Part shown: piece after piece, positions 3,095 to 54,323 of the stretch
Numbering within the stretch: the first letter of the stretch is position 1
How the letters are laid out: each line of letters begins with the position of its first letter
NCBI GenBank assembly: GCA_005889475.1
Contig: VBGT01000051.1
Coordinates: 1,859-65,858, forward strand
Length of the DNA stretch: 64,000 nt
Direction of reading: 5' to 3'
DNA from: Chloroflexota bacterium
GTDB taxonomy: Bacteria > Chloroflexota > Limnocylindria > Limnocylindrales > CSP1-4
Made by a program: the position numbers and the translations under genes
The notes under the pieces: generated by a model
What the model was told of the DNA's origin: nothing
Databases searched by the model: none
Seen by the model: the letters and a program-made list of their open reading frames with translations, nothing else

Positions 3095-3502
3095 GTGAAC
3101 ACCACTGATCTCGAGGCTCGGCTCTCGAAGCTGAGCCCGCTCCAGTACGCCGTGACCCAGGAGGGTCAAACCGAGCGCGCCTTCACCGGCGCCTATTGGA
3201 ACAACCACGCCGACGGGACCTACCGTTGCGTCGTATGCAACTCGCCGCTGTTCGACGCGGGCACGAAGTTCGAGTCCGGCACGGGCTGGCCGAGCTTCTA
3301 CGACGTGATCGAGAACGGCCGCGTCGCCACGAAGGAGGACCGCTCCTTCGGCATGCGTCGCATCGAGGCGACCTGCGCGAACTGCGGGGCGCACCTCGGC
3401 CATGTCTTCGAGGACGGGCCTCGCCCGACCGGCCTGCGCTACTGCATGAACTCGGCGTCGCTCGACTTCGAGCCGAAGAGCGAGAAGGCCGCGGCCGGCT
3501 AG
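3095..3502 (+). CDS. msrB: Peptide-methionine (R)-S-oxide reductase MsrB
   Basis: 135 aa. Canonical MsrB motifs YRCVVCNSPLF...GWPSF...CANCGAHLGHVFEDGP with both CxxC pairs. Confidence 0.92.
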   Translation: MNTTDLEARLSKLSPLQYAVTQEGQTERAFTGAYWNNHADGTYRCVVCNSPLFDAGTKFESGTGWPSFYDVIENGRVATKEDRSFGMRRIEATCANCGAHLGHVFEDGPRPTGLRYCMNSASLDFEPKSEKAAAG

Positions 3503-6215: not shown

Positions 6216-7481
6216 GTGCTCGCGACCGCCCGCACCCGGCTCGGCGCGATCGCCGCCGAGATCGACCGATCGATCGCCATCCTGGCGCTCCTTTCGTTCA
6301 TCTCCCAGGTCGGCGTCTCGATCATGCTGCCGCTGCTGCCGCTGTACGCGGTGGCGGTCGGGGCGACACCGGCCGAGGTCGGGCTCATGGTCAGCGTGTT
6401 CTCGGTGACCTCGACCGTCGGCCAGCTCGGGTCGGGATTCCTGAGCTCGCGGATCTCGGCCCGCCGACAGATGCCGCTCGGCCAGGCGGTCTACGCGACC
6501 GGCAACTTCCTCATCGCGACGACCACCGCGGCGCTGCCATTGATCACGTTCCGGGCGCTGTCCGGGCTCGGTGGCGGGCTGACGATCATCGCCGAGCGGC
6601 TGTACATCGCGCGGGTCACGGTCCAGTCTCGGCTCGCGTTCACCAACGGCGTCGTGTCCGCCGCGGCCTCCTCGGGGTCGGTGCTCGGTCCGCTGCTCGG
6701 TGCCGTGCTCGCGCTGCACGACCTGCGCGTGCCGTTCTTCGTCGTCGGTTGCACGGCGACGGTGGCTGGGGTCGCCGCCTTCCTGTTCCTGCCGGCGCAG
6801 CGCCATCTTCCGGCGGGAGAGCCGTCGGCCGCCGCGACGGTCATGCCGGAGGCGGTCGAGCTCGTTCCCGGCGTCGAGGCGCCCGCGACGCCGGCCGTCG
6901 AAGCGAGCCCCAGCCGCTGGGAGCATGCCTCGCCGCTGGTCCGCCTCGCGATCTGGAGCGTGGCGTTCAACGCCGCCTACGGCAGCTGGATCACCACATT
7001 CGGGCCGTATTCGAAGGACGTCCTCGGCCAGCCCCAGGTGTTCGTGCAGCTGTTCTTCGCGCCGTTCGGGCTGGGCGCGATCGTGTTCGGCCCGATCCTC
7101 GCCCGACTGGCGGATCGAACCGGCCGCCGGCGGATGGTGGCCATCGGGACGGTCATGTTGCTGTCGAACATCGTGGCGCTGATCGTCGGCGCGCCGATGA
7201 TCGTGCTGTACGCCTCGGCGGCGATCGCCGGGGGCGGGCTGGCGGCCGCGCAGTCGGCGTGGTTCGCGCTGCTCGCCGTGGCCACGGACTCCGGCCGGCG
7301 CGGCCGGTCGTTCGGGCTCGTGAGCGCGCTGTCGAACCTGGGCGTCATCGCGGGCGCCTCGGTCGCGTCGAGCGCGTGGTCGGCGATCGGTCTGCGAGAG
7401 GGGATGGTGAGCGCTGCCGTCTTCCTCGTCCTGGCGATTGCCTCGCTGGCGCTCGTCCCAAGCGACCGCGCGCGCGGCTAG
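6216..7481 (+). CDS. MFS transporter
   Basis: 421 aa, about 12 TM segments. Matches the MFS conserved-loop pattern (LSGLGGG...). GTG start. Confidence 0.8.
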   Translation: MLATARTRLGAIAAEIDRSIAILALLSFISQVGVSIMLPLLPLYAVAVGATPAEVGLMVSVFSVTSTVGQLGSGFLSSRISARRQMPLGQAVYATGNFLIATTTAALPLITFRALSGLGGGLTIIAERLYIARVTVQSRLAFTNGVVSAAASSGSVLGPLLGAVLALHDLRVPFFVVGCTATVAGVAAFLFLPAQRHLPAGEPSAAATVMPEAVELVPGVEAPATPAVEASPSRWEHASPLVRLAIWSVAFNAAYGSWITTFGPYSKDVLGQPQVFVQLFFAPFGLGAIVFGPILARLADRTGRRRMVAIGTVMLLSNIVALIVGAPMIVLYASAAIAGGGLAAAQSAWFALLAVATDSGRRGRSFGLVSALSNLGVIAGASVASSAWSAIGLREGMVSAAVFLVLAIASLALVPSDRARG

Positions 7482-7562
7482 ACTCAGCGCATCGACCCGC
7501 TTGGATGCGGGTCACGGTACGGGAGGTCGATCCGGGTGAGTCATCACGATAAGGCGGGAGCC

Positions 7563-7622
7563 ATGAAGAAGGCCGCGCCGGTCAAGAAGTCCGCAGCGAC
7601 CAAGAAGACCACCAAGAAGTAG
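7563..7622 (+). CDS. Candidate 19-aa lysine-rich small ORF (MKKAAPVKKSAATKKTTKK)
   Basis: ATG preceded by AAGGCGGGAG (GGAG about 7 nt upstream). An in-frame stop lies 3 codons upstream, so this is the maximal ORF. Two hairpins follow immediately downstream. Confidence 0.35.
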   Translation: MKKAAPVKKSAATKKTTKK

Positions 7623-7659
7623 CCACCCCGACCCTCCACCGCGAGGGTCGTTTCAGTTC

Positions 7660-7695
7660 CGAAGGGGGCCTGCCGGGCCCCCTTCGTCATTCCTC
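7660..7695 (+). terminator. Stem-loop (11-bp perfect stem cgaagggggcc/ggcccccttcg, 5-nt loop) followed by tcattcctc
   Basis: Perfect hairpin 40 nt after the small ORF stop. A second 7-bp hairpin (gaccctc/gagggtc) lies at 7630..7650. Confidence 0.5.
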
Positions 7696-7723
7696 GCCGA
7701 CCTTGCAACCCCTTCCGGACCTC

Positions 7724-7873
7724 TTCCATCAGAGGTTGCCTGGACCCGACGAGCCCCTCCCAACCCGGGGCCGGGCGGGCGGATGGCCCATCCGCTGAGC
7801 TGCGCATCGGACGAGGGCCCTCTTCCGGACTTCCCCCCGCCCTCCAACGGGCACAAGCAACCTTTGATGAACG
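7724..7873 (-). repeat. Structured ~150-nt intergenic repeat element, copy B (inverted relative to copy A)
   Basis: The reverse complement begins cgttcatcaaaggttgcttgtgccc (24 of 25 nt match copy A's 5' arm) and ends gcaacctctgatggaag. Internal hairpin gcggatgg/ccatccgc corresponds to copy A's atggtccatccgccc. Compensatory changes preserve the long terminal stem. Confidence 0.6.
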
Positions 7874-7885
7874 ATCGGCGGCCGC

Positions 7886-8467
7886 CTACCGATCTTCGGC
7901 CACGTTCCAGCGCTCGATCACGCTCTGCTCTCGCTCCCAGCCGAGCACCGAGATCGTCGCCGTCGCAAGCTCGAAGAGCCGCCCGTCGCGGACCGGGAGC
8001 CCGAGCCAGCGCGCGGTGAGCGCGCGGAGCACGTGGCCGTGCGCGAAGGCGAGCGCATCGCCCTTGCCCGCCCGGACTCGGGCGATGACCCGGTCGACAC
8101 GGGCGGTGACGTGGCGCGCCGTCTCGCCGTCCTCCGGCCCGTCGCGCCAGATCGTCCAGCCCGGGCGCGCCGCGCGGATCTCCTCCGTCTTCCGGCCCTC
8201 GTCGGCGCCGTAGTCCCATTCGCGCAGGTCGTCGGTGACCTCGACCCGGCCGCCGAAGCCGGCAAGGCGCGCGGTGTCGAGGGCGCGCGACATCGGGCTT
8301 GACAGCACGAGTCCGAAGGCCCGTCCGGCCAGCCGTCGCCCGACCGCCTCGCCTTCGGACCGTCCGCGGGCGGTCAGTGGAACGTCCGTGTGACTCGTGT
8401 GCCGCCCAAGCCGCGCCCACGTCGTCTCGCCGTGCCGGACGATCCAGAGCTTCGGCGCCGGGTCCAT
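7886..8467 (-). CDS. Histidine phosphatase family protein (phosphoglycerate mutase-like)
   Basis: 193 aa. N-terminal RHGET catalytic motif (LWIVRHGETTWA) and downstream GHV...H motif. Confidence 0.85.
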   Translation of the reverse strand: MDPAPKLWIVRHGETTWARLGRHTSHTDVPLTARGRSEGEAVGRRLAGRAFGLVLSSPMSRALDTARLAGFGGRVEVTDDLREWDYGADEGRKTEEIRAARPGWTIWRDGPEDGETARHVTARVDRVIARVRAGKGDALAFAHGHVLRALTARWLGLPVRDGRLFELATATISVLGWEREQSVIERWNVAEDR

Positions 8468-8522
8468 TGCCCGGAGCGTACCCGCGGTGCCGCGTCCAGG
8501 TCTCGATCCGCGATGAGGTCGG

Positions 8523-8612
8523 CCTAGTCGACGTACTGGAGCGGCGTGACCGCGAAGCCCTCCGGGAGCGTGATGCCGGTCGCGTGGTTCGGGCAGTAGC
8601 CGTTCGGGACCT
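8523..8612 (-). pseudogene. Orphan fragment of the msrA 3' end (last ~29 codons: [29 protein letters not shown]), same orientation as intact msrA
   Basis: Reverse-complement translation matches the msrA C-terminus [29 protein letters not shown]. About 78% nt identity to 10354..10443, including an identical 28-mer tggttcgggcagtagccgttcgggacct. Homology stops abruptly upstream (in-frame stop 5 codons before). Confidence 0.8.
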
Positions 8613-8653
8613 CAGATGTGTGAGCCTATGACTCGCCCGGCGTTAGCGGCTCG

Positions 8654-8830
8654 TCAGCGGCCAAGGGCGCCGACCACGAATAGCGGTATTCCCAGCACGA
8701 CCAGCACGATTCCGATCATGAGCTCGTTGCGCCGCGATACTTGTCCAGTCCCCGCGGGCGCCAAGAAGTAGTGAGCCAGTACAACGACCCCCGTGACCGT
8801 GCAGATGATGCCCGGGCGCAAGTCGGTCAT
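8654..8830 (-). CDS. Small two-TM membrane protein (58 aa), hypothetical
   Basis: Reverse complement: AAGGAGA RBS 9 nt upstream of ATG. MTDLRPGIICTVTGVVVLAHYFLAPAGTGQVSRRNELMIGIVLVVLGIPLFVVGALGR*. Not in the supplied ORF track (under 60 aa). Confidence 0.55.
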   Translation of the reverse strand: MTDLRPGIICTVTGVVVLAHYFLAPAGTGQVSRRNELMIGIVLVVLGIPLFVVGALGR

Positions 8831-8868
8831 TGTCGATGTGTCTCCTTACGTCTGCCGGAGGGTGCCCG

Positions 8869-8952
8869 CTATTCCAGGTACCGCATCGGTGTGACGACGA
8901 AGTCGTCCGGCAGCCTCACGCTAGTTCGGTGATCCGGGCAATACGCTCCCGG
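8869..8952 (-). pseudogene. Second, more diverged orphan fragment of the msrA 3' end (GAYCPDHRTSVRLPDDFVVTPMRYLE*)
   Basis: Reverse-complement translation aligns with the msrA C-terminus ([24 protein letters not shown]). Same orientation as msrA and fragment 1. Confidence 0.6.
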
Positions 8953-9075
8953 GCCTCGGTTCTGGAGGAGTCAGCCTATTGCCGGCTGTCGCTTCGTACT
9001 GGAATCGCGATACAGTGGATCTAAGTGCATCCGCCCGTCACGTCGTATGCCGCGCGGAACCTCGGTGATGGGATC

Positions 9076-10152
9076 ATGACGACGGATCAACGATTTGTGA
9101 CCCCCGACGTCGATGGTCTCGACGAAGGGGCCGCTCGTCGCGTGTTCATGACCGTGTCCTGCCGGGATTCGGATGGCATTCCCAAGGTTGAAGGTGCTGG
9201 CCAGGTCCAGATGCGCGACGGCCACGCCGTTCAGATCATGCACAACGGCCTGCTCATCGAGGAAGGTTGCTACTACGGGCCATGGATGACAGAGATCATC
9301 CGTGGCCTGGCCGGCCACCATGAGCCGCAGGAGGAGCTCGTTTTCGATGCCATCGTCTCCCGACTGGCGAAATCGAACGTCCACCATCCCACGATCCTCG
9401 AGTTCGGCAGTTTCTGGTCCTATTACTCGCTGTGGTTTTGTCGGGCATTGAATGGAGCGCACGCCGTTGCCGTCGAGCCGGATCCGGCGTATCTCGATGT
9501 CGGCAGGCGGAACGCCCAGCTCAACGGGTTGTCCGAAAGTGTCCACTTCCTACACGGTGTTGTAGGGCCACAGCCGGGCGAACCGATGGACTTTCGAACA
9601 GAAAGTAGCCAAGAAGATATTTCCGTCGTGCAGCACGATCTAGCTTCTCTGATGGATCTCGAAGGGCTGTCTCAGGTTGACCTTGCAATGATCGACATCC
9701 AGGGTGCCGAGACGATCCTTCTTGACCGAGCAAGACCGACGCTGATGGCCGGGAAGGTCAGGTTCCTCATCGTTTCCACGCATCATCAGTCGATTTCAGG
9801 TGATCCGCTCACCCATCAGAGAGCCCTCGAGCTGCTCCGGGACTGTGGCGCCCACGTCATTGCAGAGCACACGGTTCGGGAGTCCTACAGCGGGGATGGC
9901 CTGATAGCCGCAACGTTCGACGCAAGCCAGCGCGACTTCACGGTGCCGATCAGCCATGCCAGGGCCAAGGAATCGCTCTTCGGGGAGCCAGAGTATGAGC
10001 TCGATGCGCTCAACCATGAAATCGCCCATCGGGACCGGCTTCTCGCGGCCAGTAGGGCCCAGGTTGACAGGGTTCATCAGTCGAAGTTATGGAGATGGAC
10101 CAGTGGGCCGCGCGCCGCATACGCGCGTTTGCGGAAGTCGGGGCGTCGGTGA
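9076..10152 (+). CDS. FkbM-family methyltransferase, on a visibly lower-GC islet
   Basis: 358 aa. FkbM/Methyltransf_21-like core (ILEFGSFWSYYSLWF...AVEPDPAYLDVGRRNAQLNGL...DLAMIDIQGAE). Codon usage is noticeably more A/T-rich than the flanks. The antisense ORF 8971..9546 is rejected. Confidence 0.7.
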   Translation: MTTDQRFVTPDVDGLDEGAARRVFMTVSCRDSDGIPKVEGAGQVQMRDGHAVQIMHNGLLIEEGCYYGPWMTEIIRGLAGHHEPQEELVFDAIVSRLAKSNVHHPTILEFGSFWSYYSLWFCRALNGAHAVAVEPDPAYLDVGRRNAQLNGLSESVHFLHGVVGPQPGEPMDFRTESSQEDISVVQHDLASLMDLEGLSQVDLAMIDIQGAETILLDRARPTLMAGKVRFLIVSTHHQSISGDPLTHQRALELLRDCGAHVIAEHTVRESYSGDGLIAATFDASQRDFTVPISHARAKESLFGEPEYELDALNHEIAHRDRLLAASRAQVDRVHQSKLWRWTSGPRAAYARLRKSGRR

Positions 10153-10290
10153 CAAGTCATGCGAATGCCACGGAGGCGAGGACGTCAAGTGGCCATTCGC
10201 AGCGTTGTGGGAGTTCGACCTCAACAGCATGGTCTACAGGATGTCGGCAGAGGCCGTGAGGGTCATCAAGGGGGGACTGACCAGCCCCGC

Positions 10291-10326
10291 CAACGAAAAA
10301 GAGCCCGTCCCATGTGGACGGGTCTC
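10291..10326 (-). terminator. Rho-independent terminator of msrA (10-bp stem with one bulge, followed by TTTTT on the minus strand)
   Basis: Plus strand reads aaaaa-gagcccgtcc-catgt-ggacgggtctc. On the minus strand this is a hairpin followed by a U5 run, about 30 nt downstream of the msrA stop. Confidence 0.65.
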
Positions 10327-10353
10327 ATCATGTTCAGCGCTGCTCTGGCCAGG

Positions 10354-11025
10354 CTAGTCGACGTATTGCAGCGGAGTGACCCCGAACTCAGCCGGCAGCT
10401 TCACGCCGGTCCGATGGTTCGGGCAGTAGCCGTTCGGGACCTTCTGGAGGTACTGCTGGTGGTAGTCCTCGGCGAAGTAGAAGTCCGGCGCCGGCGGTCC
10501 GACGATCTCGGTCGTGATGGCGCCGTACCCGGCGGCCGCCAGGCGCTCCTGGTACATCGCCTTCGACGCCTCGGCCGCGGCCCGCTGCGCCTCGTCGCGG
10601 ACGAAGATCGCGGAACGGTACTGGGTCCCGGCGTCGTTGCCCTGGCGCATGCCCTGGGTCGGGTCGTGGTTCTCCCAGAACACCTTCAAGAGCTGCTCGT
10701 AGCTCGTCTTTGACGGATCAAACACGACACGCACCGCCTCGGCATGGCCGGTCTGACCGGTGCACGCCTCCTGGTAGGTCGGGTTCGGGGTGTAGCCACC
10801 CTGATAGCCGACCGCTGTCGTCCAGACCCCGGGCTGCTGCCAGAACGTCTTTTCCTCACCCCAGAAGCAGCCAAGCGCGAACTCGGCGATCTGGAAGCCG
10901 TCGGGGTACGGGCCGGCGATCGGCGTGCCGAGGACCGTGTGGGCCTTCGGGCTCAGGATGGGCTGGCTGCGGCCCGGCAGGGCCTCGGTGGGTGCCGGCA
11001 TCTTGGGCTTCGAGAACAGGAACAT
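10354..11025 (-). CDS. msrA: Peptide-methionine (S)-S-oxide reductase MsrA
   Basis: 223 aa. Active-site GCFWG motif ([16 protein letters not shown]) and typical MsrA core. Confidence 0.92.
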
Positions 11026-11097
11026 CAGGCGCGGGACTCCTCGTCCGTGGTTCGTTTGACGAGTCGAATCCTACGTCCGACGCGTGACGCGACGATG

Positions 11098-11616
11098 TCA
11101 GGACGGGCCACGACCGCCGGAACGAGCGAGCGCGCCGATCACCAGGGCACCACCGATGACGATGAGCGCGGCGGGGAAGACCAGCGCCGAGTCGATGTTC
11201 AGGTATCGATCGATCAGGAACCACGCCCCGACCAGCACGAGGATGAGCCCGAAGATCATGGCCCCGTTGCCGCGCCGCTCGTTCCGCGCGGCTCGGCGGG
11301 CGGCTCGCCGGGCGTGCCAGTCCGCGTCGGCGCTCGCGCCGGGCGACGCATCTGCGCTCGTGCCGGCGCCCGTCGCCCCTCCCCCGGGCGTTCCCGCCGC
11401 CATTCCAGCGGCCGCGGCACCCGGGGCGCCGAGCGGCTCCTCGGGGATGACGATCGCGGCGACGATGTACAGCAGGAGCCCGACGCCACCGGCAAGGATC
11501 AGCAGCGCCCAGACGATGCGGACCAGCGACGGGTCGAGGTCGAGCCACTCGGCCATCCCGCCGGCAACTCCGAAGAGCATCCGGTCCGATCGGGACCGGT
11601 ACAGACGTTCACGCAC
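11098..11616 (-). CDS. pspC: PspC domain-containing protein (phage-shock/envelope stress)
   Basis: 172 aa. N-terminal PspC domain (LYRSRSDRMLFGVAGGMAEWLDLDPSLVRIVWALL), a Gly/Ala-rich linker, and a C-terminal TM. Confidence 0.8.
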   Translation of the reverse strand: MRERLYRSRSDRMLFGVAGGMAEWLDLDPSLVRIVWALLILAGGVGLLLYIVAAIVIPEEPLGAPGAAAAGMAAGTPGGGATGAGTSADASPGASADADWHARRAARRAARNERRGNGAMIFGLILVLVGAWFLIDRYLNIDSALVFPAALIVIGGALVIGALARSGGRGPS

Positions 11617-12586
11617 GACAGGTGCCTCCGAATCGAAGCTCGAAGCTGCCCGCGTTCGCGCTCACGTGCAGCTCGGTGTGGGCTTGCTGAGCGTCGAAGC
11701 TCGAGCTCGTCCAGGTCGAGTCGTCGACCCGGTTGAGCCCGGCAGCGCTGAAGTTGTTGGAGCCGAGGGTGCCCGCCCAGGCGACGCGGACCGGCGCTCC
11801 CGACGGCAGGCAGACCGTCAGCGAGCCGGCATTCAGCGAGAGGTTCACGTCGCGCTGGCCGGCGGGCAGGTTCAGGGACGCCGCGCCTGCGTTGACGGTC
11901 GCGTTGACGTCCCCCGCGGTCTCGGTCGCACCGAGGTCGAAGGCCATCTTGCCCGCATTGAGCGTCATGGTCGTCGATGCGATCGAGGCGCCCGAGAGGT
12001 CGACCGTGCCGTCGCCGGCATTGAGCGTCAGGCCGAGGGTGATCGCCGGTGTGCGAGGGATCGAGACGATCCACGCCGATCGGCCCGTGCCCGGGAACCC
12101 GCCGCCGTCATCGGGTTGGATCAGGACGAGCGCCGAGGTGCTGGTCACCTTCGGGCCGCTGCCGTCTCGATCGGAGCCGGTGAGGCTCCACGCCGAGCCC
12201 TCGACAGCGTTCAGGGCCAGCGTGCCGCAGTTGAACTCGAGGTTCACCTGGGCGGCCGCGTCGAGGTTGCCGGTCCGGTCGGCGAAGGCGACGGACGGCG
12301 CATTGCTCGAGCAGCCGGTCGCGATGGGCAGGCCGCCGGCGCCGGTGGCGAGCAGGCCGCCGCCCATGATCCCGAACGTGATCGCGGCCAGGGCGCCGCC
12401 GAGCCACTGGATCGGCGTGTTGCGCAGTAACAGGCCGATGCCCCACGCGATCAATAGCAGCGGCCAGAGCAGCGGCCACTTTCCAACAAGCTCCGCGTCG
12501 AGGAGGTTGGCCCGGACCGCCAGCGGGATGCCGCCGACGAGGATGAAGAACAGGCCCCAGCCGAGGAGCCGCCGATCGATATGCAT
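11609..12586 (-). CDS. LiaF-like / DUF4097 (putative adhesin-fold) membrane protein, cell-envelope stress module partner of PspC
   Basis: Start chosen at the internal ATG (MHIDRRLLGWGLFFILVGG...). Two N-terminal TM helices, then a beta-rich domain with repeated L.LNAG...V.L motifs typical of DUF4097/LiaF C-terminal domains. Its stop lies 2 nt before the pspC start. Confidence 0.6.
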   Translation of the reverse strand: MHIDRRLLGWGLFFILVGGIPLAVRANLLDAELVGKWPLLWPLLLIAWGIGLLLRNTPIQWLGGALAAITFGIMGGGLLATGAGGLPIATGCSSNAPSVAFADRTGNLDAAAQVNLEFNCGTLALNAVEGSAWSLTGSDRDGSGPKVTSTSALVLIQPDDGGGFPGTGRSAWIVSIPRTPAITLGLTLNAGDGTVDLSGASIASTTMTLNAGKMAFDLGATETAGDVNATVNAGAASLNLPAGQRDVNLSLNAGSLTVCLPSGAPVRVAWAGTLGSNNFSAAGLNRVDDSTWTSSSFDAQQAHTELHVSANAGSFELRFGGTCRA

Positions 12587-13011
12587 CTGACGAGCCTCCA
12601 CGCACGCGGGCGATGCTCGGGCTGGTCCAACGATAACGGCGCCCCGAGCGGCCACGACTGCCGGACGGCCATTCCCGGAGGTCCGGGTGGACCGCGCCGG
12701 CGTGGACACGGATGCTAGTCTCCCGGTGGCGTGGGAGGGGAGTGCCGGTGAGCGAGGCAATGCTCGAGCGCCCGATGGGCGGGCCAGAGGCTGGCCTCGG
12801 TGGCGAGGCGGTCCGAGTTGGCGATGCCGTCGTACCGGCTGAGCGCCCCGGTCTCGCCCCGGCGCCGGAAGGCCACGCGGAGCCACCCCGCTCGTACCGG
12901 CAGCACCGCGTCGACCGCGCCCTCGCCGAGCGCCGGCTGCCGCGCGGCGACCTGTCGCCGTTCCAGCGCTCGTTCCGGCACTGGTTCTCGCGCACGGTGT
13001 CGACCCTCGTC

Positions 13012-15741: not shown

Positions 15742-16758
15742 CTACATCCCGTCGCTTCGGACGACCGCGATCGCGTTCTCGAGGCGGAGCTTCGCGATGG
15801 TGAGGTACTTGGCGAGATTCGCCCGATCGACGGAACTGATCTCGCGGACGACGTTGGGCGCCCGCAGGACGTCCATGAACGCCTCGACCGCATCGGCCAG
15901 CTGCTGCTTCGCCACGACCAGCGAGTCGTCGGTCAGGCTTCCGCCGATGTCGCGCCGCTTTCCGGTCCAGGCTGCTTCGGCAACGTCCGTCGTCTCGTCG
16001 GGGGCTGCAACCTCGCCTTCCTCTTCGTCGCTGGGGCCCAGCGGGGCAGAGCGGGCCGGTCGACCCTCGATGCGGTCGCGGAGTTTGATCAGTGTCAGCT
16101 CGCCGCGAGCGACCTGGCCTGCGAGCCGCTTGCGCTTCTTCGGGTCGTCGACCTTCAGCAGCTCGTAGGCGTGCGAGAGGGTGTCTTTGCGCAAGGACAC
16201 CAGCTCGCGAATCTCCTCCGGGGCGTCGGCGAGGCGCAGACGGTTCTCGAGATATCCCTTGTCCTTGCCGAGCTTCTGGGCCAGGCGTCGCACCGAATAG
16301 CCATGCTCACGGACCATCCGGTCGTACATCGTTGCTTCTTCGAGCGGGGAGAGGTCCTCGCGCTGCAGGTTCTCGATGATCGAGATCTCCAGCGCGGTGT
16401 CGTCGTCAATTTCCTCGACGAGCGCGGGAATGGTCCCGAGGCCGGCGGCCCTCGATGCCCGCCAGCGACGCTCGCCGGCGATGAGCTGGAACTCGCCACC
16501 TTCCAGTGGGCGGACGAGGATCGGCTGCAGGACTCCGTGCTCGCGGATCGACGCGGCCAGCTCCTCGAGTGAGGTCGCGTCGAGCGCGAGCCGCGGCTGC
16601 TCGGGGTTCGGGCTGATCCGATCCACATCGATGTTCCGGACGCCGCCGCGTGCCCGGCCCTGTCGATCATTGGAAAGCAGGCTGACGATTGCCGGCGAGA
16701 GCTCGCGCTCTTCGGACAGGCGCCGCGCAGCGGCGGCGCGGAAATCAGTTCTGGCCAA
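15742..16758 (-). CDS. parB: Chromosome partitioning protein ParB/Spo0J
   Basis: ParB box motifs (GVLQPILVRP, LIAGERRWRASRAAGL) and HTH. Start proposed at TTG with GGAGG 9 nt upstream, 14 nt inside the parA 3' end. The ORF-track ATG at 16842 would overlap parA by about 100 nt. Confidence 0.85.
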   Translation of the reverse strand: MARTDFRAAAARRLSEERELSPAIVSLLSNDRQGRARGGVRNIDVDRISPNPEQPRLALDATSLEELAASIREHGVLQPILVRPLEGGEFQLIAGERRWRASRAAGLGTIPALVEEIDDDTALEISIIENLQREDLSPLEEATMYDRMVREHGYSVRRLAQKLGKDKGYLENRLRLADAPEEIRELVSLRKDTLSHAYELLKVDDPKKRKRLAGQVARGELTLIKLRDRIEGRPARSAPLGPSDEEEGEVAAPDETTDVAEAAWTGKRRDIGGSLTDDSLVVAKQQLADAVEAFMDVLRAPNVVREISSVDRANLAKYLTIAKLRLENAIAVVRSDGM

Positions 16759-17515
16759 GGTCAACAACCTCCCGCGCGAGCTCGCGGTAGGTGCGAGCCG
16801 CTTCCGAGCCACCGGCGTACGTCGTGATCGGCCGCCCAACAAGCGGTGCCTCGCCGAGCTTCACCGTGTTTCGGATGATCGCGTTGAAGACGTGGTGATC
16901 GCCGACGACCCGAAGCTCATCGAGCATGTCGCGGGCGAGGTTCGTGCGCACATCGAAGAAGGTCGGCAGGAGGCCGAGGATCTTCAGCCTGCGGTTGAGC
17001 TTGAGGCGGATCGTGTTGATTACCTTGACCAGGTTGGTCAGGCCCTTCATCGCGTAGTACTGCGTCTGGACCGGGATGATCACGCCGTCCGCGGCGACGA
17101 GGCCGTTGACGGTCAGCAGTCCAAGGTTCGGCGGGCAGTCGATGAGCGCGTAGTCGTAGCGCTTCCGAAGCCGACCCTCGATCGCGTCACGCAGGAGCGA
17201 CTCGCGGCCGAGCATCGTGAACAGCTCGCCTTCAGTCGCAGCGAGGTCGATGTGCGCCGGTGCGATGTCGATGCCCTCGGTCTCGGTCGGCCGAATGATC
17301 TCGTCGATGGTCGCGCGCCCGACCAGCACGTCGGCCATCGAGATTTCCACGGTGTTCAGGTTGATTCCGAGGCCGGCGGTGAGATTCGCCTGCGGGTCCA
17401 TGTCGATGCACAGGACCCGGAGCCCATCCTCGGTGAGGGCACCGGCCAGGTTGATGGCCGTCGTCGTTTTGCCGACACCGCCCTTCTGATTTGCGATCGC
17501 GATCACGTTTGTCAC
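16745..17515 (-). CDS. parA: Chromosome partitioning ATPase ParA/Soj
   Basis: Deviant Walker A motif KGGVGKTT (IAIANQKGGVGKTTTAINLA). Start proposed at GTG (VTNVIAIAN). The ORF-track ATG at 17590 adds 25 aa. Confidence 0.88.
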   Translation of the reverse strand: MTNVIAIANQKGGVGKTTTAINLAGALTEDGLRVLCIDMDPQANLTAGLGINLNTVEISMADVLVGRATIDEIIRPTETEGIDIAPAHIDLAATEGELFTMLGRESLLRDAIEGRLRKRYDYALIDCPPNLGLLTVNGLVAADGVIIPVQTQYYAMKGLTNLVKVINTIRLKLNRRLKILGLLPTFFDVRTNLARDMLDELRVVGDHHVFNAIIRNTVKLGEAPLVGRPITTYAGGSEAARTYRELAREVVDLGQN

Positions 17516-17659
17516 CGGGGCGTCACCTCGTTTTCTCGCGAAGGCGGTGGTACAGGATTGGCCGGGGCGGGGTGCCGGCAACGAATCCATATGGCCGTGG
17601 CGCAGGCCCGGACGCCGTTCTGGATGCTAGCGCAGCCGGCGACTCGCCGAGCCCTCGAC

Positions 17660-40287: not shown

Positions 40288-40716
40288 GTGTTCACCGGCG
40301 AGTACCGGCACACGGTGGACGACAAGGGGCGGCTCGCGATCCCGGCGCGCTTTCGGGCGCAGCTCGAGGGCGGCGCGGTGCTGTCTCGCTGGATCGACGG
40401 TTGCCTCGCCATCCACACCCGAGCCGGCTGGGACGCCCTCTCCGCCAAGGTCTCGAGCCTCGCGCTGACCGACCCCGCAGGCCGGCTCTTCGAACGAGCG
40501 ATCTTCGCCGGCGCCCTCGAGGCTGAGTTGGACCGCCAGGGGCGGGTCCTCGTGCCGGCCTACCTGCGGACCGAGATGGGCATCGGCGCCGAGGCGCTGG
40601 TCATCGGCGTGCGCGACCACGGCGAGATCTGGGCGCCGGATCGCTGGCAGGCCTACCGGCGCGAGATGGACGACCCGGCGCGGTTTGCCGACGCCATCCG
40701 TGGCCTCGGGATCTGA
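40288..40716 (+). CDS. mraZ: Transcriptional regulator MraZ
   Basis: 142 aa, GTG start. Duplicated MraZ motifs (DDKGRLAIPARFR and DRQGRVLVPAYLR). Confidence 0.92.
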   Translation: MFTGEYRHTVDDKGRLAIPARFRAQLEGGAVLSRWIDGCLAIHTRAGWDALSAKVSSLALTDPAGRLFERAIFAGALEAELDRQGRVLVPAYLRTEMGIGAEALVIGVRDHGEIWAPDRWQAYRREMDDPARFADAIRGLGI

Positions 40717-40720
40717 GCCG

Positions 40721-41698
40721 GTGACGACCGACGACGCCGTGCCGAGCGGCCAGCCCGTGACCCACGTGCCGGTGCTCGCCGACGAGGTCATGGCGATGCT
40801 CGCGCCCGCGGCGGGCAGTCGCCAGGTCGACGCCACGCTGGGCGGCGGGGGCCACGCCGAACGCATCATCGAGGCCACCGATCCTGATGGCCGCCTCCTC
40901 GGTCTCGACGCCGACGAGGCGGCCATCGCCAGGGTCAGGGCCCGTCTCGGCCCACGGTTCGGTGATCGACTCCGCCTCCGCCAGGCGAACTTCCGCGAGC
41001 TCGCAACGGTCGCGCCCGAGGAGGGCTTCGACGCGGTCGATGGCTGCCTCTTCGACCTCGGGCTGTCGAGCTTCCAGCTCGCCGACGCGGAACGTGGCTT
41101 CGGGATCCGGACGGGTGGCCCGCTCGACATGCGCTTCGACGCGAGCCGCGGCGTGCCGGCCTTCGAGCTGCTGGCGACGCTTGACCAGGACGAGCTGACC
41201 GCGCTGTTCCGGCGCTACGGCGAGGAGCCGTTCGCGGGCCGGATCGCGCGCGGCATCGTCGAATCGCGCCGGAGCGCCCCGATCCGCACCGCCGAGGAGC
41301 TGGCGGCGCTCGTGGCTCGCGTCGCGCCGGGCCGCGCGCCGGGCCGCCGCCGCGTGCACCCAGCCACCCGCGTGTTCCAGGCGTTGCGCATCGCCGTCAA
41401 CGAAGAGCTCGATGCCCTCGAGGCCGGGCTGGCCGCCGCGGTCGACCTCCTCCGACCCGGCGGCCGGCTCGTCGTCCTGAGCTACCACTCGCTCGAGGAC
41501 CGGATCGTCAAGCGCTTCCTCCAGGCCGAGCGCCGGGGCTGCACCTGCCCGCCCGAGGTTCCCGTGTGCGTCTGCGGCCGCGAGCCGCGACTGCGCCTGC
41601 TCGCGCCCAAGGGCCTCGTTCCTTCAGCTGCCGAGATCGTCGCCAATCCCCGCGCCCGGAGCGCCCGGCTGCGCGCCGCGGAACGGATGGCCGCCTAG
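40721..41698 (+). CDS. rsmH: 16S rRNA (cytosine1402-N4)-methyltransferase RsmH (MraW)
   Basis: GTG start after the mraZ stop. Motifs HVPVLADEV, DATLGGGGHAE, LAPGGRLVVLSYHSLEDRIVK. Confidence 0.9.
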   Translation: MTTDDAVPSGQPVTHVPVLADEVMAMLAPAAGSRQVDATLGGGGHAERIIEATDPDGRLLGLDADEAAIARVRARLGPRFGDRLRLRQANFRELATVAPEEGFDAVDGCLFDLGLSSFQLADAERGFGIRTGGPLDMRFDASRGVPAFELLATLDQDELTALFRRYGEEPFAGRIARGIVESRRSAPIRTAEELAALVARVAPGRAPGRRRVHPATRVFQALRIAVNEELDALEAGLAAAVDLLRPGGRLVVLSYHSLEDRIVKRFLQAERRGCTCPPEVPVCVCGREPRLRLLAPKGLVPSAAEIVANPRARSARLRAAERMAA

Positions 41699-41765
41699 TC
41701 GCCCAGCCACGCCCCGAACGAACACGGATGAGCAGCGAAGCCCCGTTGCGGAGGAGGAGCACCAC

Positions 41766-41960
41766 GTGAGCAAGCGCCACACGGCGAGTCGACGTCGGAG
41801 CTACGGCCGGCGCCAGCACGAGCTGCACGAGCGGATGGACCAGCGGACGGAACGCGGCCGCGGCGAGCGCGCGTGGCGCGCCGGGGACGAGCTGTCATCG
41901 GAGCCTCTCGGCTACCTCGACGGTCGTGCGCCGGGCCACCCCGTCGGCTTCATCGACTGA
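41766..41960 (+). CDS. Hypothetical Arg-rich small protein (64 aa) translationally coupled to ftsL
   Basis: GGAGGAGGAG RBS 6 nt before GTG. GC3 about 87% in this frame. The stop TGA overlaps the ftsL ATG (TGATG). The overlapping out-of-frame ATG at 41873 is rejected. Confidence 0.55.
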   Translation: MSKRHTASRRRSYGRRQHELHERMDQRTERGRGERAWRAGDELSSEPLGYLDGRAPGHPVGFID

Positions 41961-42400
41961 TGGCCGTCTACGAGGGCGCCCGCCGCCGGGCCCCGCTGCC
42001 ACTCGGGCTCGACGGCCTGACCCGAGAGGGCCGCGGCGCTCGCACGCGTGGCGACGCGGCCGCGGAGCGAACGCCGAAGCGCCAGGGCCGCGCGGCCGTG
42101 GGACGCCGCCCCGCCCGCAGCGCAAAGAAGCGCCCCCGGCCATCGTCCGTGGGCATCGCGCTCTCCGCGATCGTGCTCGTGTTCAGCGCGGCGTTCCTGT
42201 CGCTGAGCCAGAGCGTGCGCGTCGCGGCGACGGGCTACGACATCGTGCGGCTCGTCTCCGAGCACGACCGGCTCGACGCGATCCGCCAGGACCTGCAATC
42301 CGACGTGGAGCGACTGCGCAGCGAGCCGGCCATCCGCAAGGAGGCGCTGGACGGCGGCCTCGGCCAGCTCGGCGCCCCGCTGCTCGTCCCCGCCCGCTAG
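41960..42400 (+). CDS. ftsL: Cell division protein FtsL-like
   Basis: Basic cytoplasmic N-terminus, a single TM (IALSAIVLVFSAAFLSL), and a coiled-coil periplasmic part. Located between rsmH and ftsI. Confidence 0.7.
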   Translation: MAVYEGARRRAPLPLGLDGLTREGRGARTRGDAAAERTPKRQGRAAVGRRPARSAKKRPRPSSVGIALSAIVLVFSAAFLSLSQSVRVAATGYDIVRLVSEHDRLDAIRQDLQSDVERLRSEPAIRKEALDGGLGQLGAPLLVPAR

Positions 42401-42415
42401 CGAGCGACGACCACC

Positions 42416-44239
42416 ATGCCCGGTCGAACCGATTCTGGGGGCCGCCTGCTCCTGCTCCTGATCGTGTTCGTCCTCGGCGCGGGCGCGCTCGTCACGCGCC
42501 TCGGGTACTGGCAGCTCGTCAAGCACGACGACCTCGTCGAGAGCGCGCACCGGCAGATCTACTACCGGGCCGAGGTGCCCAGCCAGCGCGGCCAGATCTA
42601 CGACCGGAGTGGCACGATCGTCCTCGCCGCGAGCGTGACCCGGGACCGGCTCATCGTGAACGCCGAGGAGCTGAGCGCTGAGCAGCGGGCGACCACGGTC
42701 GAGTTCCTCGCGGCGCAGCTCGGCCTGGACCCGATCGCGAGCGGCCAGCTCGCGGCCAAGCTCGCGACCGGCAAGCCGTACCTGGTGATCGCGCGGGACC
42801 TGCCACCCGAGAAGTCGACCGTGATCGAGGCGGCCGCCACAGCCGCGGGGATCGGCGGGATCACGTTCGAGTCGGACTCGGCGCGGAGCTACCCGCAGGC
42901 CGGCGGCGGCCCGAAGAGCAGCCTCGCCGCGCAGCTCATCGGCTTCGTCAATCGTGATGGCGACGGCCAGTACGGGGTCGAGCAGTTCTACCAGGACGTC
43001 CTCGCCGGCCAGCCGAAGGTCGTCGAGGCCGACCGCGACGCGAACGGCGAGCCCCTGCTGGAGACGGAACGCACGGTCGAGCCGGGTGTGCCCGGGCGCG
43101 ACATCAGGCTCACGATCGACGCGGGCCTGCAGCTGGCGCTCGAGCAGGAGGTCATGGCGGCGCGAATCGCGAACCATGCCGCGTCCGTCTCGGCAGTGGT
43201 CATGGATCCCTGGAACGGCGAGATCTACGCCGAGGCGACCTATCCGTCCTACGACGCCAACCGGTACGCGGCGATCGCGAGCGACGACCCGTCGGTCTTC
43301 GTCGACCCGATCGTGTCCAACGTCTACGAGCCCGGCTCGGTGTTCAAGATGCTGACCGTCCTCGCCGGCCTGGAGCAGGGCACGACGTCGCTCGACCGCG
43401 TCTACGACGACACCGGGAAGATGCGTCTCGACGGCGGCGAGACGAAGATCACGGATGCCGATAACAAGGCGATGGGCCGCCTCAAGCTCGAGGACGCGAT
43501 CGCCTATTCGCGCAACATCGTCGCCGCGAAGGTCGCCTTCGGGCTCGCGCCCACCACCAGCGAGGCGTCGACGATCCTCCACGAGGTCTGGATGCGGCTG
43601 GGTATGGGCAGCCTCACCGGCGTCGACGTCGCGGGCGAGGTCCGGGGCCTGGTCAACGACCCCGCCATCACCAGATGGAGTGAAAGCGATCTCGCGAACG
43701 GGTCGTTCGGGCAGGGCGTCGCGATCACCGAGATCCAGCTCGCCCGGGCGTACGCTGCGCTGATCAACGGCGGCGTGCTGGTGCAGCCGCACGTCGTTGC
43801 CGGGATCGGCACGGAACCAGTTTCGGTGACGACCAATGCACCGGTGCTCGACCCGAGCCTCAGCCCTCCGCTCGCGGGCTTGATGGAGCACGTCCTCGCC
43901 AGCCCGTGGTACGTCGACCAGGCGCGGGTGCCGGGCTACTGGATCGGCGGCAAGACCGGCACGGCCCAGGTGTGGGACCCGGAGCGAAATCGGTGGCGCC
44001 CGAACACCTTCAACTTCTCGTGCGTCGGGTTCATCGGCCGCAAGCAAGGGCACCCGGACCTCGTCGCCGCGGTGCGCATCGGCGAGGCGCCGTTCCTCAT
44101 CACGGCCAGCGGCCAGTCAATCCTCGCGTTCACCGCCCCCGAGCTCTTCCGCCGGGTCGCCACGGACGCGGTCACGACGCCCGGCCTGCTGCCCGTCCCC
44201 GCGCCGGCCGACTCGACAACGGCGCAGGCGGGCGGGTGA
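42416..44239 (+). CDS. ftsI: Peptidoglycan D,D-transpeptidase FtsI (class B PBP)
   Basis: 607 aa. N-terminal TM, PBP dimerisation and transpeptidase domains (SVFK, SRN, KTG motifs: GSVFKMLTV, YSRNI, GKTGTA). Confidence 0.92.
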   Translation: MPGRTDSGGRLLLLLIVFVLGAGALVTRLGYWQLVKHDDLVESAHRQIYYRAEVPSQRGQIYDRSGTIVLAASVTRDRLIVNAEELSAEQRATTVEFLAAQLGLDPIASGQLAAKLATGKPYLVIARDLPPEKSTVIEAAATAAGIGGITFESDSARSYPQAGGGPKSSLAAQLIGFVNRDGDGQYGVEQFYQDVLAGQPKVVEADRDANGEPLLETERTVEPGVPGRDIRLTIDAGLQLALEQEVMAARIANHAASVSAVVMDPWNGEIYAEATYPSYDANRYAAIASDDPSVFVDPIVSNVYEPGSVFKMLTVLAGLEQGTTSLDRVYDDTGKMRLDGGETKITDADNKAMGRLKLEDAIAYSRNIVAAKVAFGLAPTTSEASTILHEVWMRLGMGSLTGVDVAGEVRGLVNDPAITRWSESDLANGSFGQGVAITEIQLARAYAALINGGVLVQPHVVAGIGTEPVSVTTNAPVLDPSLSPPLAGLMEHVLASPWYVDQARVPGYWIGGKTGTAQVWDPERNRWRPNTFNFSCVGFIGRKQGHPDLVAAVRIGEAPFLITASGQSILAFTAPELFRRVATDAVTTPGLLPVPAPADSTTAQAGG

Positions 44240-45753: not shown

Positions 45754-46742
45754 CGGTCGGCACGGTCGAGATCATCCAGGGCCTGCTGCTCGCCTTCGCG
45801 GTCGTGGTGATCCTGATGCCCGCCTATATCCGCTTCCTGCGGTTCCTGGGGATGGGCAAGCGGATCCGCGAGGAGGGCCCCGAGAGCCACCAGACGAAGG
45901 CCGGCACGCCGACCCTCGGTGGCCTGCTCGTGATCGGCGTGGTGCTCGGGCTGTTCTTCCTCCTGAAGGGGGGCCTGCCCCCGGGCGGCATCATCGCGCC
46001 CATCGCAACGCTGGTGCTCGTCGGCGGGCTCGGCGCGTTCGACGACTACCTCAATGCCAAGACCGGCGAGGGCATCAGCGCCCGCCAGAAGATGCTCTGG
46101 CTCGTCGTCGTTGCCGCGGTCGCCGCCTACCAGATCCAGAACACCTACGCCATCGAGTCGATCGCCGTCCCGTTCATCGGCACGGTGATGATCCACCCGG
46201 CGCTGTACATCGTCTTCGCCGCCTTCGCGATCATTGCCGCGGCGAACGGGGTCAACATCACCGACGGCCTCGACGGCCTCGCCGGCGGGACGCTCGTCTT
46301 CGCCTTCGTCGCATTCGTGTTCGTGGCGCTGCTCAACGTCCCGACGCAGCCCAACCTCGCCGTCCTGTGCGCGCTCATCGTCGGCTCGCTGCTCGGCTTC
46401 CTGTGGTTCAACGTCCATCCCGCCCAGGTGTACATGGGCGACTCGGGCTCGCTGGCGCTGGGCGCGACCCTCGCCGTGACGGCGCTGATCACCGGCCAGA
46501 TCCTGATCCTGCCGCTCGTCGGGCTGGTGTTCGTGATCGAGACCCTGTCCGTCGTCCTCCAGGTCGCCTACTACAAGATGACGCGCGGCCGGCGGATCTT
46601 CCGGATGAGCCCGCTCCACCACCACTACGAGCTGGCGGGCTGGGACGAGGAGAAGATCACGCTGCGTTTCTGGATCGTCGGGATCATCGCGGGGCTGATC
46701 GGCGTGACCCTGTTCCTCGCCGCGATCAACCGGCTGAGCTGA
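45750..46742 (+). CDS. mraY: Phospho-N-acetylmuramoyl-pentapeptide transferase MraY
   Basis: 330 aa, 10 TM, conserved DD/DGLDGLA motifs. Confidence 0.93.
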   Translation: MTVGTVEIIQGLLLAFAVVVILMPAYIRFLRFLGMGKRIREEGPESHQTKAGTPTLGGLLVIGVVLGLFFLLKGGLPPGGIIAPIATLVLVGGLGAFDDYLNAKTGEGISARQKMLWLVVVAAVAAYQIQNTYAIESIAVPFIGTVMIHPALYIVFAAFAIIAAANGVNITDGLDGLAGGTLVFAFVAFVFVALLNVPTQPNLAVLCALIVGSLLGFLWFNVHPAQVYMGDSGSLALGATLAVTALITGQILILPLVGLVFVIETLSVVLQVAYYKMTRGRRIFRMSPLHHHYELAGWDEEKITLRFWIVGIIAGLIGVTLFLAAINRLS

Positions 46743-46743
46743 C

Positions 46744-52960: not shown

Positions 52961-52967
52961 TCGCGCG

Positions 52968-53960: not shown

Positions 53961-53999
53961 TAGCCTTCGCCGGAACGCACCGCAGCGAGGACGGCTCCG

Positions 54000-54323
54000 T
54001 TGCTCCTCCCCCTGGCAGGCCTGCTGGTGGGCGTCCTGCTCGGGCTCGTCCTCAACGTGAACGTCGGCTTCGAGCTCAGCCGGTACTCGGCCGTGGCGAT
54101 CCTCGCCGCGCTCGACTCGGTGCTCGGGGCGGTGCGCGCGGAGCTCGACGGCGTCTACGACAATCGAATCTTCATCTCCGGCTTCGTGACCAACGCGATC
54201 GTGGCGGTCATCCTGACGTTCATCGGCGACCGCCTCGGCCTGGACCTGTACCTGGTGGCGCTGATCACGTTCGGCCTGCGGATCTTCAACAACGTCGCCC
54301 TCATCCGGCGGCATTTCATCTGA
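54000..54323 (+). CDS. DUF1290 / small basic protein Sbp-like membrane protein
   Basis: 107 aa, TTG start, 3 TM. Position between ftsQ and ftsA is as in Bacillus (sbp). Confidence 0.65.
   Translation: MLLPLAGLLVGVLLGLVLNVNVGFELSRYSAVAILAALDSVLGAVRAELDGVYDNRIFISGFVTNAIVAVILTFIGDRLGLDLYLVALITFGLRIFNNVALIRRHFI

Follow-up and report, generated by a model that had tools for sequence, protein, structure and literature searches.

The 3′ end of msrA, the gene for peptide-methionine (S)-S-oxide reductase, carries inserted foreign DNA in an uncultured soil Chloroflexota bacterium (Limnocylindria; Limnocylindrales; CSP1-4), and the gene has been restored by a tail that came with the insert. We analyzed a 64,000-nt stretch from this organism (assembly GCA_005889475.1, contig VBGT01000051.1, positions 1,859 to 65,858), hereafter the window, in which all coordinates below are given. 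Small cassettes were probably inserted at this place one after another by a site-specific recombinase, each replacing the tail of the gene. Serial site-specific insertion into the msrA 3′ end had been proposed in an earlier reading of the same DNA (the sequence-only reading), and this proposal is supported by empty sites in relatives, base composition, the polarity of the repeats, an FkbM-family methyltransferase module shared with other genomes, and recombinase-bearing elements at the same gene end in actinomycetes.

Inserted DNA and displaced gene ends downstream of msrA

The target gene (10354..11025, minus strand) is still whole after insertion. It is a full-length open reading frame (ORF) of 223 aa, ending at 10354 as described earlier, and it keeps a complete PMSR domain (PF01625, E = 2.7e-61) and the GYC motif. 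A protein identical to its product is on record from a Chloroflexota metagenome-assembled genome (MAG) (TME11079.1), and the identical protein occurs in several samples; the closest msrA matches (82–84%) belong to Candidatus Limnocylindrales MAGs. In the sense of the gene, msrA is followed by a terminator-like hairpin, an antisense FkbM gene, a displaced msrA tail (f2), a gene for a 58-aa protein, a second displaced tail (f1), and a histidine-phosphatase gene (7886..8467, minus strand; PF00300, E = 1e-49). The phosphatase gene is the ancestral downstream neighbour of msrA, lies outside the insert and begins 56 nt past f1. Overlap with the islet or its junctions was seen in 12 independent contigs, which come from nine sample accessions and are >99.5% identical to the window; two of these reach from msrA to the phosphatase gene with an arrangement identical to that of the window, indicating that the structure is real and fixed in the species rather than an assembly artefact.

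The two orphan copies of the msrA end that had been reported in the orientation of the gene were confirmed as f1 (8524..8611, minus strand) and f2 (8869..8958, minus strand), each of ~29 codons. The more distal, f1, was 81% identical to the msrA 3′ end across 96 nt (tblastn E = 2e-9), and f2, comprising 29 in-frame codons and a stop (tblastn E = 7e-6), showed 63% nucleotide identity to f1. Read on the msrA strand, both stay in frame as far as a stop codon at the homologous position, the translation of f2 being RGPGAYCPDHRTSVRLPDDFVVTPMRYLE*. No duplicate of other parts of msrA was found by tblastn, and the repeat is thus restricted to the last ~30 codons. A third, very degenerate copy suggested near 8985..9010 was not upheld: it comes down to one 9-nt match, and scores as high were reached by 17% of shuffles and 31% of random window segments.

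The copies had also been called decayed, but they are better described as displaced working tails, since they have neither indels nor internal stops, the ratio of nonsynonymous to synonymous substitution rates (dN/dS) between tails is 0.3–0.5, and functional msrA genes in relatives bear the same types. Both LPEGFAVTPL (the f1 type) and LPDDFVVTPL (the f2 type) were seen on such genes in the cluster that holds the window msrA, built at 90% identity, and the tail is the hypervariable part of MsrA within that cluster. Fragments of a RGPGAYC type are present in L004 and L083. The tail of L002, a relative with an empty site, is 76% identical to the tail segment of f1 versus 69% to the present tail, which fits f1 as the original end of msrA. 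Because f1 is the most distal copy and adjoins the ancestral neighbour, the phosphatase gene, it is probably the original chromosomal 3′ end. Reading frames and substitution ratios together indicate that the orphan tails formerly served as working msrA ends.

Relatives without the insert, in which msrA should be directly followed by the phosphatase gene, were found: the gap between the two genes is 37 nt in L002, 107 nt in L024, and 34 nt in the syntenic L189, a 1.17-Mb contig that is colinear with the window on both sides and whose msrA has 81.6% nucleotide identity. The lower-GC islet noted earlier was borne out by GC and codon profiles. GC content drops from ~0.71 to 0.60 over 8613..10353, the lowest-GC 1.74-kb segment in the whole window (0.604 against a window mean of 0.712, sd 0.025), and the third-codon-position GC of the FkbM gene (0.70) is the lowest of 61 candidate genes, the others ranging from 0.77 to 0.97. 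The islet DNA is compositionally foreign.

These data bear directly on a tandem duplication of msrA or its 3′ end, in which the paralogue decayed and unrelated genes were inserted later. The copies are indeed direct repeats beside their parent gene, and their identities are graded (81% for f1; 63% for f2 against f1), as such a history might leave them. Yet there is no trace nearby of the first 190 msrA codons, all fragments share their starting codon block and run precisely to the stop, f1 and f2 are free of frameshifts and stops, and the more distal copy is the one more similar to msrA. Moreover, syntenic empty sites exist and the intervening DNA is compositionally foreign and shared with distant genomes at 95% identity, so that duplication is effectively refuted.

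The FkbM cassette and arrays in related genomes

The unit next to msrA, cassette 1 (8959..10434, ~1.47 kb), comprises an msrA tail, a terminator, the FkbM gene and a 25-nt arm. Its cargo is the lower-GC, opposite-strand FkbM-family methyltransferase gene that had been placed between the tail copies, confirmed at 9025..10152 (plus strand, antisense to msrA; PF05050, E = 1.4e-8; alternative start at 9076). The present msrA tail, consisting of the last 26 codons and the stop (10354..10434, minus strand), belongs to this cassette and has been inherited together with FkbM. A hairpin with a T run resembling an intrinsic terminator (10304..10322, minus strand) lies 32 nt past the msrA stop, within cassette DNA, and is kept in the cassette copies of L181 and L185. 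At the opposite end is the left arm, GGCAATAGGCTGACTCCTCCAGAAC (8959..8983, minus strand), which is conserved, non-coding and interrupted by in-frame stops, and is the inverted-repeat partner of the GYC-codon motif.

The whole segment 8959..10434 was ~95% identical to segments in L181–L184 and L185, where the msrA bodies are 74% identical to that of the window. The FkbM gene showed nucleotide identities of 97.4% (L181) and 95.8% (L185), with dN/dS values of 0.23 and 0.48, respectively, and a synonymous divergence (dS) of 0.06–0.07; this low dS and the dN/dS values indicate that the gene is functional and that its arrival was recent relative to host divergence. The cassette is of foreign origin and has spread horizontally in the recent past. 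Its distal boundary (...TCCAGAAC at the break; ...GGCAATAGGCTGACTCNTCCAGAAC) is equal in the window, L181 and L185, with a different orphan tail following in each, and on the msrA side the window and L181 share the segment as far as AACGGCTAC. The cassette heads the array in the window and in L185 and takes second place in L181, in which a module with an 86-aa ORF lies between msrA and the FkbM cassette; the tail now worn by the window msrA is therefore an orphan in L181, one cassette from msrA, at ~95% identity. Between L181 and L185 the backbone is 87% identical, the FkbM cassette 95% and a 228-aa cassette 92%, and both the order and the content of the arrays differ. The islets had been regarded as degraded remnants, which is not obviously so: judged from these comparisons, the FkbM module at any rate is a discrete mobile cassette of 1.47 kb that evolves under purifying selection and has moved as a unit, and not debris.

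Cassette 2 (8612..8958), to which f2 is assigned as its tail, carries the gene for the 58-aa protein (8654..8830, minus strand; third-codon-position GC 0.79). As described earlier, this ORF encodes two hydrophobic segments and is preceded by a ribosome-binding motif, AAGGAGA, at 8841..8847, 10 nt ahead of its ATG. The protein was found in this species only, and a Pfam search returned a single match, to DUF4118, below threshold. The left arm of this cassette, GAGTCATAGGCTCACACATCTGA (8612..8634, minus strand), is a diverged copy of the arm motif of cassette 1, with 10 of 13 positions matching GGCAATAGGCTGAC in a manual count.

Similar arrays were found downstream of msrA in other genomes. We surveyed 167 non-redundant msrA loci, for which similar amounts of sequence were available upstream and downstream, and all 27 extra msrA tails lay downstream of msrA on the same strand, with none upstream and none inverted. 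Extra tails numbered three in L004, one and perhaps two in L023, four in L083, one and perhaps two in L048, one in L063, five in L181/L182, and about seven to eight within 6 kb in L185; short-type or other-type tails were found in L102 (two), L145 (one) and L154 (one). The tails delimit modules of one to a few genes, forming units of 0.1–3.5 kb, many of them 0.1–0.6 kb, whose genes include RibD_C, glyoxalase, YecM, DinB_2, EamA and MFS members and many ORFs without a family. Cargo orientation is mixed in L181 and L185, as it is in the window, where FkbM is antisense and the 58-aa gene sense to msrA. In L083 a YecM-like remnant follows the distal tail, and in the related L173 YecM directly follows msrA, indicating that the old tail stayed with its old neighbour and that the ancestral junction was kept. 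Many fragments of the larger arrays are frameshifted or truncated (L004 C, L185 C–G), and arrays are missing from most relatives. The two-cassette array of the window belongs to a kind that is widespread in Limnocylindria.

Some arrays contain tails of a foreign type or further genes at their edges. Orphan tails of a short type (GVSCPIGLGV) occur at L185:150-5060 and L182:2490-4460, although the msrA genes of these loci are of the long type (LP..F..TPLQYVD); the short type is typical of actinomycetes and of the CSP1-4 MAG L048 and of L063. Such mixed arrays in L185 and L182 imply cassette traffic between hosts with different msrA ends. In the metagenomic locus L154 (12166-14082), a gene for a 638-aa protein with a TIR domain and TPR repeats lies just past the orphan msrA tail, possibly serving in defence at the border of the inserted segment. 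In L102 (10642-15700), a Mutator transposase fragment and toxin genes of the AbiEii-like and PIN kinds lie between two short-type orphan tails, with a short serine-recombinase pseudogene just past the array, and the whole looks like a decaying integrated element.

Putative attachment site, candidate recombinases and proposed mechanism

The putative attachment site in msrA (10422..10458, minus strand) is an imperfect dyad made up of CAGCAGTACC (codons QQY), 17 nt, and GGCTACTGCC (codons GYC), and the crossover would fall within ~10435..10441 (GTCCCG), in the middle of the dyad. At the FkbM cassette junctions of the three genomes, identity drops from ~95% to ~70% between ...CCAGAAS and AACGGCTAC. 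With all junctions aligned, the orphan tails are preceded by a motif of the form ~GGCARTAGGCTGAC, 6–9 nt, (C/T)NGAGAAC, which is non-coding and has in-frame stops. This left-arm motif resembles the reverse complement of the GYC-codon block and, with up to two mismatches, was present upstream of 8 of 23 fragments versus a background of 2.5%, several of the copies not being independent. A conserved non-coding left arm on each cassette had not figured in the sequence-only reading, which proposed instead a 28-nt identical core as the att core. That identity is exact (8585-8612 = 10415-10442, shared by f1 and msrA, with two occurrences in the whole window), and the present msrA tail holds most of the block; but the block is mostly conserved coding sequence (PNGYCPNH), and the crossover would map to its 5′ edge as read along the gene. 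On the same alignments, attB would be the msrA dyad and attP the cassette left arm plus the replacement tail, and each orphan would represent the left arm of a newer cassette joined to the tail of an older one.

Two other site types were considered and set aside. A Xer/dif-like or attC-like site was rejected by inspection, the dyad spacer (17–27 nt) and the end motifs fitting neither, and an interpretation of the spacing as serine-integrase attP/attB half-sites (21–27 nt in orphans, 17 nt in msrA) was dropped because the orphan sites of actinomycetes keep 17 nt.

We propose that recombination takes place within the msrA codons QQYLxKxPxGYC near the 3′ end. Small circularizable cassettes would bear a matching site, composed of the diverged non-coding left arm (~GGCARTAGGCTGAC...CAGAAC) and a full replacement tail that ends at the stop; for the FkbM cassette, the predicted circular junction would join window position 8959 to ~10434-10441 and read ...CTCCTCCAGAAC-N6-AACGGCTACTGCC... 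A crossover made by the recombinase, placed between left arm and GYC codons, would insert the cassette into the chromosome; msrA would be kept intact by the tail of the cassette, and the previous tail would be shifted downstream behind the left arm of the cassette. As the renewed msrA end would again be a good target, the next cassette would enter there, and the newest would always adjoin msrA. At least two insertions would have occurred in the window, first that of the 58-aa-protein cassette (8612..8958) and then that of the FkbM cassette (8959..10434), leaving f1 as the original tail and f2 as the tail of the first cassette, in use before cassette 1 arrived.

The loci also show exchange between tails. 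In a contig of the same species, L167:1-60 (corresponding to window 10354..10408), the tail at the msrA position is 100% identical to f1 over 55 nt and joins the FkbM-islet flank at the stop codon, the contig breaking exactly at the repeat; this suggests that, in part of the population, the orphan tail has recently converted the expressed end of msrA. The tail beside the L185 FkbM cassette departs from that of the window in its coding part, and sequence is shared from ~PLQYVD* onward. We therefore weighed homologous recombination alone, whereby one or a few ancient insertions were followed by the exchange of modules between genomes and their reshuffling within arrays, through homologous recombination or gene conversion at the repeated msrA tails, with no dedicated recombinase acting today. 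It would accommodate the f1-type tail (at least 55 nt identical to f1) fused to the islet flank at the msrA position in L167, the msrA-side high-identity boundary of L185, which lies close to the stop and not at the GYC codons, and the ~48 nt of identity between fragment A of L181 and the msrA tail of the same locus, and the conserved blocks at both ends of the tail (NGYCPNH and TPLQYVD*) are plausible anchors. Homologous crossovers, however, are expected to be variable and to lie inside shared blocks, whereas the distal FkbM junction is the same in three contexts, directly 5′ of a conserved block, and the sequences rightward of it are only ~70% alike. Strict polarity and a conserved, non-coding, dyad-symmetric left arm are features of a recognition site, and homologous recombination alone cannot account for the first insertion or for the actinomycete elements described below; we consider it unlikely as a full explanation.

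A related possibility is that the orphan tails form a silent reservoir by which gene conversion varies the MsrA C-terminus, in the manner of pilE/pilS, with the cassette genes being incidental. MsrA tails are hypervariable in the clade, with bodies falling in one cluster built at 90% identity, the tail of L167 has been swapped with f1, and orphan tails remain in frame. This is the only swap observed, though, and there is no known benefit of varying the MsrA tail; recent displacement explains the in-frame preservation equally well, many fragments of the larger arrays are frameshifted or truncated, and most relatives have no arrays. A reservoir function is thus very unlikely.

As the sequence-only reading had stated, no integrase was found in the islet (Pfam annotation and tblastn). 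None appeared in the Pfam annotation of same-species contigs over ~10 kb on each side, and tblastn of a serine recombinase of an actinomycete integrative and conjugative element (AICE) against the window gave no match. Ten unannotated cassette ORFs gave no recombinase match in Pfam at E<=1, and no integrase, replication or transfer gene or pseudogene was found in ~30 modules of eight Limnocylindria arrays. Searches for phage or plasmid similarity were likewise negative: blastn of 8467..10460 against phage and plasmid collections returned one 53-nt match at chance level, and in viral contigs the left-arm motif matched solely an ssRNA-phage-like contig and the GYC core two 40%-GC contigs without msrA or recombinase similarity, all of which were judged to be chance.

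Recombinase-bearing elements do occur at the msrA 3′ end in actinomycetes. The search for integrases beside this gene end in other genomes, proposed earlier as a check, yielded large serine recombinases in two of them. An actinomycete MAG (L056) has a 7.4-kb lower-GC element between msrA and an orphan tail, and Herbidospora cretacea NBRC 15474 (L019) has an 8.8-kb element in the same position. Each carries a pSAM2-type RepSA gene and a large serine recombinase gene that abuts the orphan tail; the L019 enzyme has Resolvase and Recombinase domains and the L056 enzyme is 62% identical to it. No transfer gene was identified in the L056 and L019 elements. The recombinase family is large in Streptosporangiales, and every named relative comes from an actinomycete, of the Streptosporangiales or of another group. 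Two of the relatives sampled have different targets, namely a SCO4848-family gene (Frankia) and a site beside an aldo-keto-reductase fragment, suggesting that msrA targeting is one specificity among several. The former, from Frankia sp. Mgl5 (L186:9755-19715), is a 57%-identical recombinase within an element that also bears RepSA and SMODS/S_4TM genes and is flanked by two copies of the SCO4848-family gene, which points to several target specificities within the same family; SCO4848 is the target gene of phage phiBT1. The AICE serine-recombinase family was abandoned as a guide to a Limnocylindria enzyme, because membership in it does not predict msrA targeting and no Limnocylindria member was identified. 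The enzyme that moved the Limnocylindria cassettes in trans may be a large serine recombinase akin to those of the actinomycete elements, a guess that has circumstantial support and in which our confidence is low.

Given these elements, the islets might instead be deletion remnants of large integrase-bearing elements (an AICE, another integrative and conjugative element (ICE), or a prophage), with one cargo gene and the att sites left behind. L056 and L019 do have intact 7–9-kb elements with a serine recombinase and RepSA at the msrA 3′ end, the toxin–antitoxin genes, transposase fragment and recombinase pseudogene near the tails of L102 look like an intermediate, and tandem arrays of integrase-less remnants are well known (PMC7192596). 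This origin is nevertheless rather unlikely, for the FkbM unit spans an equal 1.47 kb and has one and the same distal junction in three genomes whose divergence long predates that of FkbM, indicating that the small unit itself moved, and the ~30 Limnocylindria modules, many of 0.1–0.6 kb, are without integrase, replication and transfer genes. The cassettes would accordingly be small integrase-less units helped in trans, not leftovers of large elements.

Several points weigh against serial, recombinase-driven insertion of cassettes. No recombinase was found in the window (judged by ORF reading beyond ~19 kb), in the Limnocylindria arrays or in the cassette ORFs. The actinomycete repeats start at TACCACCAGCAG, ~30 nt upstream of the Limnocylindria cassette junctions, so that crossover points or enzymes may not be the same in the two groups. 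Some copies counted in the left-arm statistics belong to the same cassette and are not independent, homologous exchange among tails also shapes the loci and blurs junctions (L185, L167), and the 12 same-species contigs, which all agree in their overlaps, show neither a presence/absence polymorphism nor a circular form. Finally, 0.5–0.7 kb without detectable tails separates msrA from the phosphatase gene in L001 and L003. With these points taken into account, serial insertion with replacement of the tail remains our reading of the locus. We further suggest, tentatively and at somewhat less than even confidence, that the Limnocylindria msrA 3′ end is the capture site of an undescribed integron-like platform, with integrase-less single-gene cassettes that each bring a short conserved arm and a full msrA tail, a recombinase acting in trans that inserts them serially at the QQY/GYC dyad, exchange between species and occasional conversion of the expressed msrA end by displaced tails.

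The locus in its genome and among known systems

On its two sides msrA has PspC and LiaF-like genes, an acyltransferase gene and the phosphatase gene, and upstream neighbours vary among array-bearing genomes. The PspC-domain and LiaF-like membrane protein gene pair (11098..12886) lies directly upstream of msrA and is shared with L002 and L003; it is missing in L001 and in the otherwise syntenic L189, making a second indel that adjoins msrA. A 135-aa ORF at 3095..3502, annotated in same-species contigs as a SelR-domain (msrB) gene, lies ~5 kb from msrA beyond the phosphatase gene and is neither adjacent nor fused to it. ORF translations read by eye pointed to a division and cell-wall cluster at 40288..57539 (mraZ, rsmH, ftsI, murF, mraY, murD, ftsW, ddl, ftsQ, ftsA and ftsZ) and parA/parB at 15742..17590, which would place the msrA locus in the core chromosome and not in a larger island. 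Around the islet no tRNA is encoded within 48 kb, and 7000..12000 gave no Rfam match.

Replacement of a gene end on insertion and tandem accretion are textbook properties of mobile elements; e14 and phage 21, at Escherichia coli icd, are elements of this sort. As with integrative elements at gene 3′ ends in general, the att-borne tail restores the gene, the displaced end becomes a direct repeat, reuse of the site builds tandem arrays, and changes in the replacement end are for the most part silent or conservative. Here the target is msrA, the units are mostly single-gene, 0.1–3.5 kb in size and integrase-less, and arrays reach up to ~8 units. Direct repeats in one orientation, an intact target, an empty site in relatives and foreign, horizontally spread DNA were all found, as expected of integrative elements; a recombinase gene within the element was found only in the actinomycetes L056 and L019, and not in the window or the Limnocylindria arrays. 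Integrative elements that supply a replacement gene end, including tandem arrays, have been described with icd-targeting elements among the cited examples (PMC7192596). No report of msrA as an attachment site was found in the literature searched.

The actinomycete elements L056 and L019 are AICE-like, having a pSAM2-type RepSA gene, a large serine recombinase and a position at the msrA 3′ end bounded by msrA-tail repeats. AICEs with serine recombinases have been found integrated in protein-coding genes or a tRNA-Leu gene, with one disrupting its target and msrA unmentioned (PMC3218068). The cassettes of the window differ from AICEs in having no integration, replication or transfer genes, in belonging to a Chloroflexota and not an Actinomycetota host, and in a boundary that is off by ~30 nt. 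Where an AICE would bring an integrase, a RepSA, RepAM or Prim-Pol protein and an FtsK/TraB-like protein, the islet encodes only the FkbM and 58-aa proteins.

Cis-mobilizable elements (CIMEs), which accrete site-specifically at the 3′ end of fda in Streptococcus thermophilus, have arisen from ICEs by deletion, are several kilobases long and are presumed to be moved by the integrase of a related self-mobile element. The msrA arrays resemble them in that att-flanked units without integrase or transfer genes are lined up in tandem at a housekeeping gene's 3′ end. Unlike CIMEs, the units here are cassette-sized, numerous and shared between species at identities above that of the backbone, and the only cognate self-mobile elements found for the window cassettes belong to another phylum and have a displaced repeat boundary.

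Staphylococcal cassette chromosome (SCC) elements are inserted by serine recombinases in the last codons of rlmH (orfX) of staphylococci without inactivating the gene. Both systems use the last codons of a housekeeping gene, and SCC likewise forms composite tandem arrays, including recombinase-less pseudo-elements between direct repeats. SCC repeats are ~15–18 bp, versus replacement tails of ~90–120 nt here, SCC units are many kilobases long, and the hosts are unrelated.

What goes beyond textbook behaviour is msrA as a target, Limnocylindria as a host, and arrays of up to ~8 mostly single-gene cassettes that have no integrase in the available sequence and are more alike between species than the chromosome backbone is. 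Limnocylindria are an abundant uncultured class of Chloroflexota in soil and freshwater, and to our knowledge their mobile elements are essentially unknown. The actinomycete elements would provide serine integrases of a new specificity, possible tools for genome engineering, one of them from the cultured Herbidospora cretacea NBRC 15474. The locus also suggests that C-terminal mosaicism of a housekeeping protein can arise from mobile-element traffic, and mosaic tails matter for phylogenies and for annotation pipelines that name orphan tails pseudogenes.

A further functional parallel is with integrons, in which cassettes are serially captured at a fixed site with the newest proximal, and with clusters of attC sites lacking integron-integrases (CALINs). 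The msrA arrays share with these mostly single-gene cassettes with their own recombination sites, an order and content that differ among close relatives, and the absence of a nearby integrase. Unlike an integron, the site has no IntI gene beside it, no IntI-type tyrosine recombinase being adjacent to the msrA capture site among the flanking genes examined, and recombination would use a short arm together with the coding tail of a housekeeping gene. By inspection of the primary sequence, the attC ends RYYYAAC/GTTRRRY were not matched, the repeat ends being CC(A/C)GAAC, GGCTACTGCC and the stop codon. Cassettes in the window, L181 and L185 are not the promoterless, co-oriented units of integrons; their genes point both ways, and some have their own ribosome-binding site or terminator. 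If the cassettes move as units through a trans-acting enzyme, the msrA end would represent a second integron-like route of gene capture, independent of IntI and attC, and would also offer a compact attB/attP pair. The array behaves like an integron without being one.

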